Shown one piece after another: positions 38,309-42,401 of a DNA stretch of 64,000 bases. Every line of letters begins with the position of its first letter. Within the stretch, counting starts at the first letter, position 1. The translations under genes were made by a program, and so were the position numbers. The notes under the pieces are model-generated. The model was given only the letters and a program-made list of their open reading frames with translations, had not been told where the DNA came from and did no database searches. The DNA lies in contig CAUTZD010000001.1 in the NCBI GenBank assembly GCA_963542825.1, forward strand, positions 22,307 through 86,306, read 5' to 3'. The DNA is from an uncultured Acholeplasmataceae bacterium. Lineage in GTDB: Bacteria; Bacillota_I; Bacilli_A; ML615J-28; CAG-698.

Positions 38309-38338
38309 AAGGGGCTTAATAAGCCCCTTTTTTTTCTT
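38306..38338. terminator. Bidirectional rho-independent terminator
   Basis: aaaaggggctt-aat-aagccccttttttttc. Confidence 0.8.
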
Positions 38339-39212
38339 CCTTCGCTTCGCGTAAGCGCAAGAGATAAATAACGATTTTTTCAATCGGCACTTCCTTAAGA
38401 TCGATGAAGTAGCGTTGTAATAAACGAATATCATCTTTCTTAAGTTTGCTTGGAAGACAAGCGTACATCTCATCTTCATACTCTTCATAGCCGATTACTT
38501 TAAATTTAGCAATCAAAGGTTTTAGAGTTTCCTTTGTTCCTGAAAGATACACAAAGTCGTTAATAATCTTATCGATTGTCAACGATTCAATAAGCACGCC
38601 TTTATCAAAAATTAAAAGTTCACTCATCAAAGGTTTTAAGCTATCAAGGTTTTTTGATGTAATTAAGAAAAGCCGTTTTTTACTGTACCAACTATCTTTT
38701 AAGAAGTCGATAAAGTCATTACTTTTCTTTGGATCAGTATATCCTGCTAGGTCATCGAAAATGGAAATCAAACTATTAGAAGACAAAGTAGCAATATCGA
38801 GAATTAATTTACGCTCATATTCGGTTAGTGAACTTGTCTTTTGGCGATAATGAAAACCGAAGTGTTTAATCATCGTCTCGTAAAGGTTCAAATCAAAATC
38901 TTGAAAACTTCGATCAAGGATTTCTTTAATGTCATCAAGCGTCACATTTTTACCAAATTCATCGAGACTTTTAAAGTAAGCAATGTTTCCAAAAAAGTTT
39001 GTTTTTTCATAACTGAAAATTTCATCGACGTATACTTCACCGCGATATTCAAAGTCGCGTCCACTGATGATATTAAAAAGTTCTGGAAGACCACTACCCT
39101 CAGTGCCAGAGAAGACGTATATTTTATCGAAAAGAAAATCGAAGGTAAAGTTTTGGATGACCTTTTTACCTTCAATTTCTTTTTGGATATTTACACAACT
39201 AAGAATAGCCAT
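38316..39212 (-). CDS. ABC-transporter ATPase homolog with degenerate nucleotide-binding motifs (probable pseudo-ATPase), ABC-2/BcrA-like with a C-terminal extra domain
   Basis: It matches the ABC fold along its length, but Walker A is GTEGSGLPELF (no Lys-Ser/Thr), the signature is LTEYER (not LSGGQ) and Walker B is LISIFDDL. No permease gene is adjacent. Confidence 0.55.
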   Translation of the reverse strand: MAILSCVNIQKEIEGKKVIQNFTFDFLFDKIYVFSGTEGSGLPELFNIISGRDFEYRGEVYVDEIFSYEKTNFFGNIAYFKSLDEFGKNVTLDDIKEILDRSFQDFDLNLYETMIKHFGFHYRQKTSSLTEYERKLILDIATLSSNSLISIFDDLAGYTDPKKSNDFIDFLKDSWYSKKRLFLITSKNLDSLKPLMSELLIFDKGVLIESLTIDKIINDFVYLSGTKETLKPLIAKFKVIGYEEYEDEMYACLPSKLKKDDIRLLQRYFIDLKEVPIEKIVIYLLRLREAKEEKKGAY

Positions 39213-39225
39213 ATTTTCCTTCCGC

Positions 39226-39828
39226 TTATAAGATTTCTAAATTTTCAAGTTCTGTTATCTTTATTTGATTGTTGAAAGAATCGATAAGTTTTAAAACTAT
39301 ACGATTGCTTTCTTCATTTTTAAATTTAACGGTTAGTGTTACCTCTGTTCCCATGCTTTCATTTATAATACTATCAGTGTAATGCTTCTTATAGATACTA
39401 TAGTTTTTATAGCTGAGAACTATTTTGAATTTAGTAAATAACCCAACCTCTGTAAACTCGCAAATTTTCAAAGCTTCCTTTAAGCTTAGCCGGTAAGTGT
39501 GCTTAAGGTTACTTGCGCCAAGCTTGATTCCACCGAAAAACCTAATTGTAACTCCAAGGCAAGAAGTGATGTTAAGCTTTTTTAGAGCTTCGTAGATGAC
39601 ATTTCCGGCAGTGCCTGCTGGTTCACCATCATCGCTAAATTTTGCTGTTTCTTGGTTTAAACCAAGGATGTAACAGTAAGTATAGTGGCTCGCTAAAGGA
39701 TACTTCTTTTTAAGTTCAGCTAAAGCTTTTTTAGCTTCGTTTTCGTCTGTTACATGAAGCAAAAAAGTCAAGAAACGACTTTTTTTGACGATGATTTCAG
39801 TTTGGACAGGAGCTTTGATTTTTTGCAC
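39226..39828 (-). CDS. yigZ: IMPACT/YigZ family protein (UPF0029)
   Basis: SRFLTFL...DDGEPAGTAGNVIYEAL, the hallmark YigZ N-domain; 200 aa. Confidence 0.8.
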   Translation of the reverse strand: MQKIKAPVQTEIIVKKSRFLTFLLHVTDENEAKKALAELKKKYPLASHYTYCYILGLNQETAKFSDDGEPAGTAGNVIYEALKKLNITSCLGVTIRFFGGIKLGASNLKHTYRLSLKEALKICEFTEVGLFTKFKIVLSYKNYSIYKKHYTDSIINESMGTEVTLTVKFKNEESNRIVLKLIDSFNNQIKITELENLEIL

Positions 39829-39918
39829 ATTCTATTATACCAAAAGAAGCAAAAAAGTGCCACCCAAAATTAAAAACTTTTCCGATACAATTATATATGT
39901 AGTATAATAAAGGTCGAG

Positions 39919-41439
39919 GTGAAAATAGTGAACGATTTTTGGCGTGATTGCCGACAAATAGTTAAAATGTTAATAGATGCAGGCTACGATGCTTACTTCG
40001 CTCGTGATGCCGTCATTGATCGTATTAGTGAGCGTGAAATCTCTTTAATTTGGATTGTGACAACTGCTAATATTACAGTACTTAAAAAGATGTTTCCTGA
40101 ATCACTTGAATTATCTAATTATAAAGATACGATTATTGTTAATAAAGACGGTAGAACTTTCGTTCTCGAATCGCTCAAGTTTGACTTAACAAACATTGCT
40201 CCTGATCCTAAAGGACACTATTCAACAGTAATTGTCGATGGTCTTGGAAACATGGAATATACAATTGATTCAATTATCATCAGTTATAGCGATAAAACCT
40301 TTGATCCATTCCTTGGTCTTGAAGATTTAAATAAACACAAACTAGTTTTTATTGGTGACACACAAGTACGGATCGAACACGATCCTTTTATCATCTTAAA
40401 GGGTTTAAGATTGATGGCTAAATATGGGTGCACGTTTAGTAGTAAAGACGAAAAGATTATCAAAAAGTTTGCTCATGTTTTAGTAAGGCTATCATTTAAA
40501 GATTATGCTTTTTTCTTAGAAGAGATTACGAAAGGTGAATACGCTCGTTTAGCTTTTAAGAAAATTTATAGTCTTGATGTTTATAAATACTTACCACAAT
40601 TTAAAGATGCTTTAGAGATTATTAGTAGAAGAAGCATAACATTAAAATTTGAAGAAGTTTTGCTTCTTACTTCTGTTGTCAACGATTTTATTGATCCCGA
40701 GTATGCTTTCTATATTAGTAACTACGATACTTTTAAAAAGGCAAAGCACCTTGCAATTGCTAATCCTGCTTGCAAGTATGATATGCTTGAACTTTTTACA
40801 TATGGGCTTGATGTCGCACTACTTGCTAATAAAATGAACTATTTGATTGGCTTAAGTTCACTTAAGACAGGACAAATTAAACGTAAATTTAATAAGCTCA
40901 AAATTAAAAGAATTTGCGATCTTGTCTTTAAGGGTGAAGACATTTTGAAAATCACCGACCAAGATGGTGATTATCTTAGTGAGCTTGTTGACGAAATTGC
41001 TTTTCTTGTTTTAAAAGGAAAATTACGAAACGACTATATGGAGATTAAAGATTTCGTTTTAAAAAGACTTCCGGAACTTGGGATTAATATTATTAGCGAT
41101 GAAAAATACCAACCAATTTATCAGTATGATGAAGACAGTTTAACTGATATTCAGGATATTGATCAGGAATCTTTCATGAAAAATTTGATGGAAGCAACTG
41201 ATGAAAAGGAAGTTTATGATGCTTTGAAAAAGCAAGGGCGAATTTTTAAGAAGATTGTTTTAAACAGTAATCCTACTTTTACTCGCAACCAGGAAATTGA
41301 TTATTTCATTTTCCAAAAGATTGATGATGTTTTGCGAGCAAACTTTGTTAAACAGCTTCGCCCAAAGCGCTATGAAATAATGCAGAATTTATTTAGAGAT
41401 TATGTGAAATTTTTTAATCAACTCGAAGGAAGTAAATAA
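39919..41439 (+). CDS. CCA-adding enzyme/poly(A) polymerase-family paralog with substituted catalytic residues (predicted inactive nucleotidyltransferase)
   Basis: It aligns with B. subtilis Cca over head and neck (LIDAGYDAYFARDAVID vs LIEAGHQAYFVGGAVRD; ISLIWIVTTA vs IGDVDIATDA; HDPFIILKGLRLMAKYGCTF vs EDALRMLRAVRFMSQLGFTL). GG is replaced by RD, and both Asp of DxD by L/W. GTG start; 506 aa. Confidence 0.6.
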   Translation: MKIVNDFWRDCRQIVKMLIDAGYDAYFARDAVIDRISEREISLIWIVTTANITVLKKMFPESLELSNYKDTIIVNKDGRTFVLESLKFDLTNIAPDPKGHYSTVIVDGLGNMEYTIDSIIISYSDKTFDPFLGLEDLNKHKLVFIGDTQVRIEHDPFIILKGLRLMAKYGCTFSSKDEKIIKKFAHVLVRLSFKDYAFFLEEITKGEYARLAFKKIYSLDVYKYLPQFKDALEIISRRSITLKFEEVLLLTSVVNDFIDPEYAFYISNYDTFKKAKHLAIANPACKYDMLELFTYGLDVALLANKMNYLIGLSSLKTGQIKRKFNKLKIKRICDLVFKGEDILKITDQDGDYLSELVDEIAFLVLKGKLRNDYMEIKDFVLKRLPELGINIISDEKYQPIYQYDEDSLTDIQDIDQESFMKNLMEATDEKEVYDALKKQGRIFKKIVLNSNPTFTRNQEIDYFIFQKIDDVLRANFVKQLRPKRYEIMQNLFRDYVKFFNQLEGSK

Positions 41440-42401
41440 TGGCAAAAATAAAAGATTTTGATTTTAATGATGAAGCTGTAATTACAGCAAAAGTATCATC
41501 GCTTTCCGAGCGTAAAACAACTGCTGGCTCGCCTTATTTTTCTTTTCACGTTTTTGATGGTGAGGAAAAGATCGAAGCGAAAATTTGGAATATAACTCCC
41601 GAAATCCAGGATACTTTAGTTGCGGGCGACGTTTATATTTTTAAGGGGCGCATCAAAGAGTATCAAGGGAAGAAGCAGTTTAATATTGTTAGTCTTGAGA
41701 GACTTGATGAAACACAAAACGATTTATCAAGCTTTTATGAGTTTGCACCAGTATCGCTTGTTGAGCTTAAAGAACTCATTTATGAATATATTGATAAAAT
41801 TGAAAATTCTGTTATCAGAGAAATAACGAAAGAAGTAATTAAACAAAACGAAGATAAATATTTTTTATTTCAAGCTGGTGTTAGTCTTCATCATGCGTAT
41901 TTTTCAGGACTTGCATATCACTGCTATTCGATGCTTGATTTAGCTGATGTTCTTTTAAAGCGTTATGAAGGAATCAACAGCGACCTTGTATATGCAGGTA
42001 TCATCCTTCATGATGTTGGAAAGGTTGTGGAGTTTTCAAAGGCTAATGGGCCAAGTTATACAGATAGTGGCAACCTTATGGGTCATTTATTTATTGGCGC
42101 TAATATGGTTGAAGAAGCTGCTATGCGGCTTGGATATACAGATACTGAGGAAGTATTAAATTTAGTTCATATCATTCTTTCCCATCATGGTGATCCTGAT
42201 AAGGGAGCAGTTAAACCGCCAAAAACTCTTGAAGCGGTCGTTGTTCATTTGTGTGATTACGTTGACTCGCGGCTTGCAGGACTCACTGTCAGCATGCGTG
42301 ATGTTGAGCCAGGGAAATATTCAGAACCCCTTTTAATGTTTGAAAAAGAGACTTTTCGCAAGGCTAATTTAAAATTACCGGTTGCGAAAAAGAAGAAATA
42401 A
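41439..42401 (+). CDS. yhaM: 3'-5' exoribonuclease YhaM (OB-fold plus HD domain)
   Basis: An N-terminal OB-fold (VYIFKGRIKEYQGKKQFNI) followed by HD-domain motifs (ILHDVGK; LSHHGDPDKGAVKP; HLCDYVDSRL). Confidence 0.8.
   Translation: MAKIKDFDFNDEAVITAKVSSLSERKTTAGSPYFSFHVFDGEEKIEAKIWNITPEIQDTLVAGDVYIFKGRIKEYQGKKQFNIVSLERLDETQNDLSSFYEFAPVSLVELKELIYEYIDKIENSVIREITKEVIKQNEDKYFLFQAGVSLHHAYFSGLAYHCYSMLDLADVLLKRYEGINSDLVYAGIILHDVGKVVEFSKANGPSYTDSGNLMGHLFIGANMVEEAAMRLGYTDTEEVLNLVHIILSHHGDPDKGAVKPPKTLEAVVVHLCDYVDSRLAGLTVSMRDVEPGKYSEPLLMFEKETFRKANLKLPVAKKKK

Follow-up and report, generated by a model that had tools for sequence, protein, structure and literature searches.

A predicted non-catalytic descendant of the CCA-adding enzyme encoded in overlap with yhaM in an uncultured Acholeplasmataceae bacterium

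Introduction

The closest described relative of the protein that concerns us here is the class II CCA-adding enzyme, as represented by that of Geobacillus stearothermophilus (PDB 1MIV), a head-neck-body-tail protein that carries the motifs GG, DxD, RRD and EDxxR. A stretch of 64,000 nucleotides from an uncultured Acholeplasmataceae bacterium (contig CAUTZD010000001.1 of assembly GCA_963542825.1; hereafter the window) encodes a 506-amino-acid (aa) protein, which we call CCAL, that is predicted to share this fold and whose gene occupies the genomic slot of genuine cca in related genomes, but that lacks all four motifs and has in addition a helical extension of ~115 aa and an HYS motif. The CCAL gene (39919–41439, plus strand) overlaps yhaM (41439–42401, plus strand; 320 aa), which codes for a 3′-5′ exonuclease with OB and HD domains, and it diverges from yigZ (39226–39828, minus strand; 200 aa), a member of the IMPACT/UPF0029 family by profile searches. 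Beyond yigZ on the minus strand lies a gene (38316–39212) for a catalytically degenerate ABC nucleotide-binding domain (NBD) protein of 298 aa, here called ABCL, whose C-terminal domain is highly conserved. An earlier note on this DNA, made from the sequence alone, had drawn attention to these four genes as a possible RNA quality-control unit; the coordinates that it gave agree with the list of open reading frames (ORFs), and the gap between the divergent genes (39829–39918) is, as it said, exactly 90 nt. All four proteins belong to known superfamilies.

YhaM is a hexameric 3′-5′ exonuclease, and that of Bacillus subtilis is reported to be a 3′-exonuclease of single-stranded DNA (ssDNA) that is required for transformation and regulated by LexA (PMC12107432). 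In vivo, YhaM can partly take the place of enzymes that process tRNA and rRNA (PMC11347170, where Wen et al., 2005, is cited for tRNA precursors that contain CCA). The YhaM/Cbf1 proteins of B. subtilis and Staphylococcus aureus (PDB 9h3f, 9o7t) share with the YhaM of the window the OB plus HD architecture and the HD motif. They differ in that yhaM in the clade described here overlaps the 3′ end of the cca or cca-like gene. In B. subtilis the two genes are presumably unlinked.

How a CCA-adding enzyme and 3′ exonucleases interact at the ends of tRNA is, by their titles, the subject of PMC5824355 and PMC6468291 (Escherichia coli Cca with RNase T and RNase R), and the likeness to the arrangement proposed below lies in an end-building protein and an end-trimming nuclease meeting on one tRNA 3′ terminus. 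The E. coli proteins, however, are both active and are encoded at separate loci, whereas here a predicted dead 'builder' appears to be translationally coupled to the nuclease. In trypanosomatids, the AdoMetDC prozyme and a dead paralog of DHS resemble CCAL as dead homologs that selection maintains, their presumed task being the modulation of an active enzyme (PMC5201418 and PMC3663545). They differ in that they regulate their own active paralog, whereas YhaM, the presumed partner of CCAL, is unrelated to it in fold; CCAL seems to be the ortholog itself and not a duplicate. Neither a catalytically inactive bacterial family of CCA-adding enzymes nor a cca-yhaM gene pair is described in the literature that we searched. 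We know of no earlier bacterial pseudo-CCA-adding enzyme, and CCAL would be the first.

A degenerate CCA-adding enzyme

CCAL scores 131 bits against NCBIfam PRK13299, under the equivalog cut-off of 290, and among Pfam models it matches tRNA_NucTran2_2 but not the PolyA_pol head-domain model. Residue-by-residue alignment with 1MIV gives homology across residues 10–383, within which GG is replaced by RD, DxD by LxW (both catalytic aspartates being gone), RRD of motif B by NME, and the EDxxR nucleotide template of motif D by HDxxI. Motif A reads FARDAVID and SLIWIVTT where 1MIV and the Bacillus enzyme have FVGGxVRD and GDxDIATS, and motif D reads HDPFI where EDALR is expected. The earlier note had called this protein a dead CCA enzyme, and with all four motifs lost relative to 1MIV both that description and the family assignment stand.

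AlphaFold2 (AF2) predictions, run on database protein sequences, gave a model of CCAL with a mean predicted local distance difference test (pLDDT) score of 86.4. The best Foldseek matches to this model are 1MIV, 6Q52 and 8CBM, with E values from 7e-20 to 4e-12; that to 1MIV has E = 7e-20 and a TM score of 0.72 on the target. Judged from the model, CCAL appears to keep the head-neck-body-tail class II Pol-beta nucleotidyltransferase fold, to which a helical C-terminal extension of ~115 aa is added, and from the replaced motifs it is predicted to be non-catalytic.

Relatives of CCAL were found by exhaustive HMMER search, a word-indexed protein search having returned near-identical relatives only. 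The top ranks are taken by several dozen cluster representatives of 500–560 aa (39 at E ≤ 1e-30), and ordinary CCA-adding enzymes of ~390 aa rank below these long forms. There are several features of this family. First, its consensus has G-E where GG is expected, shows no conservation at the first Asp of DxD, and carries a degraded EDxxR template. Second, it has acquired a new invariant motif, H-Y-S, at H100, Y101 and S102. Third, motif tables of 82 cca homologs show that short cca genes in the yigZ/yhaM context are intact and that the long forms display a graded loss, from members that have lost the first Asp and keep GG, RRD and EDxxR (L002, L005 and L006) to the CCAL of the window, which is the most degenerate of all. 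Finally, the ratios of sequence identity in degenerate forms to that in intact ones are 1.25 and 1.18 for the body and tail, 0.99 for the head and 0.88 for the neck. In the canonical enzyme the body and tail are the tRNA-binding domains and the neck is the nucleotide-templating one, and CCAL may well keep its tRNA-binding architecture, the body and tail being relatively better conserved and the templating neck relaxed.

CCAL and ABCL are under strong purifying selection. Compared with contig L001, the reference for this calculation (proteins 92–97% identical, dS ~0.3), the ratio of nonsynonymous to synonymous substitution (dN/dS) is 0.042 for CCAL, 0.047 for ABCL, 0.125 for YigZ and 0.019 for YhaM. 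With values of ~0.04 neither degenerate gene is a decaying pseudogene, an explanation that was considered for both and is ruled out by these ratios, and what the earlier note had called apparent pseudoenzymes can be regarded as real ones.

On one contig (L087, from JGI 3300032167) the CCA-like gene, at 4347–5821, is present as two overlapping ORFs of 219 aa (matching PolyA_pol) and 278 aa (matching tRNA_NucTran2_2). The split may be an error of assembly, or it may stem from a frameshift or from pseudogenisation.

Conservation of the gene neighborhood

One genome per GTDB species was scanned with a 12-sequence alignment as query, which returned 80 loci, and the six-frame ORFs of these loci were searched with the proteins of the window; in the degenerate group, contigs that end too early are left out of the denominators. 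The neighborhood is kept in 23 other species-level genomes at only 25–34% identity. These are metagenome-assembled genomes (MAGs) assigned to 'Bacilli' and to Acholeplasmataceae/Acholeplasmatales, from rumen, gut, digesters and groundwater. At these degenerate loci yhaM either overlaps the CCA-like gene or abuts it in all 22 cases, typically by 8–20 nt, a divergent yigZ lies within ~180 bp in 23 of 23, and the ABCL gene is no more than 1.7 kb from yigZ in 20 of 21, the exception being L010. An independent search that started from the ABCL family recovered the same cluster on three of four contigs, including that of the most divergent full-length member; the fourth contig (P0196) is that of L010, in which the ABCL gene is ~13.7 kb from yigZ.

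A further 18 Mollicutes-like loci, from Izemoplasmatales, some Acholeplasmatales, Anaeroplasmataceae and 'Bacillales UBA' MAGs, carry an intact cca of ~400 aa (except at L023, where it is long). Here yhaM is downstream in 15 of 16, usually after a pullulanase gene, and a divergent yigZ is present in 17 of 18, and not one of the 18 has ABCL. At about 14 Izemoplasmatales-like loci the pullulanase, of ~700 aa with PulA_N1, CBM48 and alpha-amylase domains (for example L027, 11178–13274), sits between cca and yhaM, a glycoside hydrolase gene thus parting two nucleic-acid genes in an odd yet conserved manner; this gene had been a candidate for a fifth partner and was rejected on being recognized as a pullulanase. 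In true Bacillaceae and a Streptococcus, yhaM and yigZ are unlinked to cca and ABCL is absent.

The clustering is not due to chance, and the neighborhood is real. The earlier note had left room for the four genes never being neighbors in related genomes; they adjoin across a deep clade (20 of the 21 informative genomes), and with 23 species-level genomes and the ABCL-side contigs that possibility clearly falls away. Of the links within the neighborhood, that between cca or the cca-like gene and yhaM is the oldest and tightest, and it is the only pairing with independent comparative support.

Descent of CCAL

The CCA-like gene fills the same slot, between a divergent yigZ and a downstream yhaM, as a catalytically intact cca does in 17 of the 18 related Mollicutes-like loci. 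In a neighbor-joining tree all of the degenerate forms make up a single clade, which branches from inside the intact Mollicutes-like cca genes and is sister to L023 and L025. The L023 enzyme has 568 aa with all motifs intact, and its gene abuts yhaM; further long, intact CCA-adding enzymes are P0019, P0039 and P0054. In P0039 (L090) the long intact cca has a stop/start overlap with yhaM, and yigZ and the ABCL gene are not nearby; this organism encodes a penicillin-binding protein. The long intact forms, too, are recognized by a hidden Markov model (HMM) built on the C-terminal extension, a match to be taken with caution because the region is coiled-coil-like.

The earlier note had taken CCAL for a paralog, against which both the genomic slot and the nesting in the tree argue; CCAL is probably a degenerate ortholog of genuine cca, and an HMM search for a second cca, covering the 64-kb window, found none there. 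The most economical order of events, as far as these sequences indicate, would begin with cca beside yhaM, proceed through gain of the C-terminal extension and tight coupling, and end with graded catalytic loss. In Mollicutes, every tRNA gene carries an encoded 3′-CCA and the CCA-adding enzyme has been described as 'obsolete' (Grosjean et al., PMC4014445), which would provide a rationale for relaxed catalysis in CCAL. A search with ARAGORN gave no tRNA genes in the window or in any of the 90 loci.

The YhaM and YigZ proteins

YhaM and YigZ both look intact. YhaM aligns over its full length with PDB 9h3f (E = 1.4e-54) with the HD motif aligned, and it matches Pfam tRNA_anti-codon (32.7 bits, the N-terminal OB fold) and HD (55 bits), the metal-binding pattern H..HD..H..D being present. 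Its score against PRK13480 is 232 bits over positions 22–311 of 314, under the cut-off of 460. YigZ covers the entire profile of Pfam PF01205 (UPF0029/Impact_N) with 98.2 bits, well over the cut-off of 27, and scores 128.7 bits over positions 8–204 of 205 of TIGR00257, under the cut-off of 167.95. Each thus appears to be a divergent yet full-length member of its family. A literature search for the function of YigZ returned nothing relevant.

Further along the window, 7–16 kb downstream of yhaM, are genes for RecD2 (49264–51474), ComEC (51963–54188, with Competence and metallo-beta-lactamase domains) and RNase Y (58413–59996). The presence of ComEC suggests that the organism may take up DNA.

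The ABCL family and its membrane partner

ABCL matches Pfam ABC_tran at 15.5 bits, under the 25-bit cut-off, and resembles PmtA weakly over its full length (NCBIfam, 34.9 bits). Its Walker A sequence is GTEGSGLP, which departs from GxxGxGK[ST] in having neither the Lys nor the Ser/Thr, LTEYE replaces the LSGGQ signature, Walker B reads IFDD where hhhhDE is expected (the Asp kept and the catalytic Glu changed to Asp), and the H-loop His is Ser. The AF2 model (mean pLDDT 85.9) has as its Foldseek matches 4HZI, MetN, NosF and PmtCD, all NBDs with C-terminal domains (E values from 1e-15 to 1e-12), and ABCL seems, on this model, to keep the NBD fold with its RecA-like and helical subdomains. 'Dead ABC ATPase', the term used in the earlier note, is apt: Walker A, signature, catalytic Glu and H-loop His are lost and the NBD fold is kept.

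The family was defined by profile search, since here too a word-indexed search gave near-identical relatives only. It is discrete, with ~110 clusters at 336–501 bits, below which come one fragment of 213 aa at 177 bits and canonical ABC proteins at ~82 bits; in the source databases its members are named only 'ATP-binding cassette domain-containing' or 'hypothetical'. The signature, catalytic Glu and H-loop His are lost in all 20 aligned members, the Walker A consensus is GKSDSGxxxLL with the Lys kept in one subgroup only, and the C-terminal domain (approximately residues 220–290) is the best-conserved part.

In 14–15 loci of relatives, the ABCL gene overlaps a downstream gene for a polytopic membrane protein of ~215 aa with six transmembrane (6-TM) segments (TM215; for example L002 2397–3041, L007 7289–7966 and L014 7532–8179), a family without a Pfam match whose genes in every case overlap the 3′ end of the ABCL gene, with which translation is normally coupled. 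There is no TM215 homolog in the window, nor in a digester Acholeplasmataceae subgroup (L018, L020 and L022), and the ABCL of the window is therefore an orphan. The junction between yigZ and the ABCL gene has received insertions in different genomes, namely DegV plus MarR genes, a SpoIIID gene, and a 13.7-kb island; at L010 the island of ~13.7 kb that separates the two genes contains TIR, transposase helix-turn-helix (HTH) and DUF4062 genes.

Two of these loci deserve a note of their own. At L088 (1–7700; GCA_947627195.1, CANQVC010000002.1) the ~13.7-kb island lies exactly between yigZ and the ABCL gene. Its genes are for a TIR-domain NTPase-like protein, an HTH fragment of a transposase, a protein with DUF4062 and tetratricopeptide repeats (TPR) and a rhamnosidase-like protein, and it has the look of a mobile or defence island. 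At L087 the gene between yigZ and the ABCL gene is that for SpoIIID, which hints that part of the clade keeps sporulation genes.

The described systems closest to ABCL are the ATPases of ABC-2 and type V exporters (PmtA/PmtC, NosF and the orphan NBD 4HZI), which also combine the NBD fold with a C-terminal domain, and the succession in relatives of ABCL and an overlapping gene for a polytopic membrane protein of ~215 aa is like that of ABC-2 operons. The ABCL family differs from these ATPases in lacking LSGGQ, the catalytic Glu and the H-loop His, and mostly also the Walker A Lys; the window's ABCL lacks an adjacent membrane partner as well, and the C-terminal domain is its most conserved part. 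Because it has a TM215 partner of its own, is absent from the intact-cca loci and is subject to insertions at its junction with yigZ, ABCL is best considered a separate membrane module, most likely a non-hydrolysing, membrane-associated one that the degenerate clade's ancestor would have acquired at this position. A link of ABCL to RNA is unsupported. This family of dead NBDs, with or without the 6-TM partner, constitutes a second, independent family of pseudoenzymes that needs explanation.

Possible roles

We tentatively propose that CCAL is a non-catalytic partner of YhaM that binds the 3′ ends of tRNA or other RNA, and that the locus is a neighborhood of three units, a reading that we lean on while judging it slightly more apt to fail than to hold. 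The comparisons above establish the anatomy of the locus, the loss of motifs, the folds, the selection, the synteny and how events followed one another; RNA binding by CCAL, its physical or functional partnership with YhaM and the dispensability of CCA addition are what we infer from them. The proposed course of events is as follows. In an ancestor of Izemoplasmatales/Acholeplasmatales-like bacteria a genuine cca would already have had a divergent yigZ on one side and yhaM on the other. Among the descendants, the clade to which the organism of the window belongs would first have gained the helical C-terminal extension and the stop/start overlap with yhaM, and would next have progressively lost the Pol-beta catalytic carboxylates, GG, RRD and the EDxxR template, with purifying selection acting throughout. 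CCAL would now recruit or restrain YhaM, for example such that 3′ trailers are trimmed to the genome-encoded CCA without over-digestion. This scheme would fit a lineage in which CCA synthesis has become dispensable, and a former CCA-adding enzyme would be a natural device for finding the tRNA 3′ end and protecting the CCA. The second unit would be yigZ, co-regulated from the shared 90-nt region, with a role that is probably related to translation or RNA. The third would be the dead ABC NBD, placed by an insertion in that clade between the genes for YigZ and the DUF1146 protein, which in the window would have lost its membrane partner yet stays conserved.

A more specific form of this proposal makes CCAL a subunit of the YhaM hexamer that is dedicated to specificity. 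CCAL would dock on the tRNA elbow and acceptor stem as a CCA-adding enzyme does, while its inactivated head caps or measures the 3′ end and YhaM trims 3′ trailers exactly to the encoded CCA; the pairs of intact long CCA-adding enzyme and YhaM would then represent an ancestral add/trim holoenzyme. We consider this version doubtful. If it were true, an 'add' enzyme would have been turned into the ruler of a 'trim' enzyme, and the ancestral pairs would be a previously unrecognised holoenzyme for adding and trimming at tRNA 3′ ends.

Several points weigh against a CCAL–YhaM partnership at tRNA ends. With a pullulanase gene between cca and yhaM in ~14 Izemoplasmatales-like loci, tight coupling of the two genes is not universal, and their adjacency could be inherited synteny. 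The split ORFs at L087 mean that the CCA-like gene could be dispensable there. The relevant substrate of YhaM may not be tRNA, given the reported role of the enzyme with ssDNA in transformation (PMC12107432) and the ComEC gene of the window. Finally, the phyletic co-occurrence of ABCL with degenerate CCAL amounts to one event in one clade, which statistically counts for nothing in either direction.

The alternative that survives best is that the genes are neighbors by descent only, with CCAL moonlighting as a tRNA chaperone or sensor, or with its reading frame merely delivering ribosomes to the yhaM start. The whole region from prmC through tsaC, rpiB, upp and the DUF1146 gene to uvrB is syntenic across these genomes, and the intervening pullulanase of Izemoplasmatales points the same way. 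However, the dN/dS of 0.042 together with invariant residues in all domains indicates that selection acts on the CCAL protein and not just on an open frame, and the overlap with yhaM recurs both in 22 of 22 degenerate loci and in independent lineages whose flanking genes differ. We take this alternative seriously while thinking it unlikely.

The proposal that ABCL, YigZ, CCAL and YhaM together form one coordinated RNA quality-control machine, as the earlier note suggested, fares less well. It draws on the adjacency of all four genes in 20 of 21 informative degenerate genomes and on three of four ABCL-side contigs, on the shared phyletic range of ABCL and degenerate CCAL (with ABCL missing from 18 of 18 intact-cca loci), and on the organization of the window, where yigZ and the ABCL gene are 13 nt apart and share their divergent region with CCAL. 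Against it, the usual partner to which ABCL is coupled is a 6-TM membrane protein, yigZ and ABCL are parted in several genomes by unrelated genes or a 13.7-kb island, the co-occurrence goes back to one ancestral event, and cca-yhaM coupling is found also where yigZ or ABCL is lacking. ABCL having a partner of its own and separating from yigZ, and a pullulanase coming between cca and yhaM, treatment of the four genes as a single unit is probably wrong, and we regard a four-protein machine as improbable.

It is more improbable still that the unit serves DNA metabolism, with YhaM acting as a 3′-deoxyribonuclease on ssDNA in uptake or repair and CCAL as a 3′-end-binding accessory. B. subtilis YhaM is reported to be a LexA-regulated, hexameric ssDNA 3′-exonuclease required for transformation (PMC12107432), and ComEC, RecD2 and UvrB are encoded nearby in the window; but CCAL derives from a tRNA-specific enzyme and appears to keep its tRNA-binding body and tail, the cluster contains no competence genes, and the link to ComEC is one of proximity only, at ~10 kb. 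That CCAL is still an enzyme, performing some other nucleotidyl transfer or hydrolysis with substitute residues or a new active site, is very improbable in spite of the head equalling that of intact enzymes in conservation (ratio 0.99), the new family-specific invariant HYS residues, and the retention by some members (L002, L005 and L006) of one acidic residue or of GG, RRD and EDxxR, for the carboxylate positions in the window are Leu and Trp, GG, RRD and EDxxR are gone, and the substitutions vary between lineages in the pattern of relaxed catalytic constraint.

Should CCAL be a binding partner of YhaM as we propose, then YhaM, whose substrates and partners are debated (RNA ends, nanoRNA, ssDNA in transformation), gains a candidate partner that is testable, and cca would have been repurposed once tRNA genes encode CCA, as opposed to its outright loss in Mollicutes (Grosjean et al., PMC4014445). 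The family would also offer an unusually clear path from enzyme to pseudoenzyme, since all stages (short and intact, long and intact with yhaM, graded loss) are present in living lineages.

Flanking genes and expression signals

The window has a G+C content of ~34%, and its plus strand carries nearly all of the genes. Upstream of the locus is a housekeeping series of dnaB, prfA, prmC, a membrane protein gene, tsaC, rpiB, upp and a gene for a 75-aa DUF1146 protein, and downstream are genes for proteins of 973 and 242 aa, followed by uvrB. The order of these flanking genes is that known from Firmicutes.

The stop codon of CCAL and the start codon of yhaM overlap as TAATG, and the ribosome-binding site GAAGGAAG lies within the CCAL coding sequence, an arrangement by which yhaM appears to be translationally coupled to CCAL in the window. 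On the other strand, yigZ is 13 nt upstream of the ABCL gene, and the spacer holds a GGAAGGA ribosome-binding site. Within the 90-nt divergent region the minus strand has the sigma-70-like sequences TCGACC-16-TATAAT and GTGGCA-18-TATAAT, and the plus strand a TATAAT at 39903–39908, all of these being consensus matches only. The shared promoter region of the earlier note is thus supported at the level of consensus matches only.

A terminator scan identified a G+C-rich hairpin between A and T runs at 38307–38331, which is likely to be a bidirectional terminator, one that serves both the yigZ-ABCL operon and the DUF1146 gene convergent with it. An Rfam search of the window found no RNA element, its sub-threshold matches reflecting the terminator hairpin.

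The gene for the large conserved 973-aa protein (42440–45361, plus strand) is preceded, in the spacer that separates it from yhaM, by a promoter-like TTGCGA-17-TATAAT and an AAGGAG ribosome-binding site. The protein has an acidic N-terminus followed by one hydrophobic segment, and searches of Pfam, NCBIfam and PDB gave no sequence match. Homologs of 900–1260 aa follow yhaM in most relatives, lying directly 3′ of it in 17 of the 23 degenerate loci, and membership of this protein in the unit is uncertain.

Other features of the window

Directly upstream of dnaB, a single ORF of 818 aa (29942–32398, plus strand) joins a GdpP-type c-di-AMP phosphodiesterase to ribosomal protein L9. The GdpP part is complete (PAS, GGDEF-like, DHH and DHHA1 domains, residues ~88–657), as is L9 at residues 671–816; in Bacillus, gdpP and rplI are adjacent yet separate genes, and the ORF represents either a genuine fusion of GdpP with L9 or the loss of a stop codon. 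The second ATPase of an Opp-type peptide transporter operon (7918–10128, plus strand) is unusually long, at 736 aa, and matches ABC_tran in two stretches, which implies a large insertion in or before its NBD.

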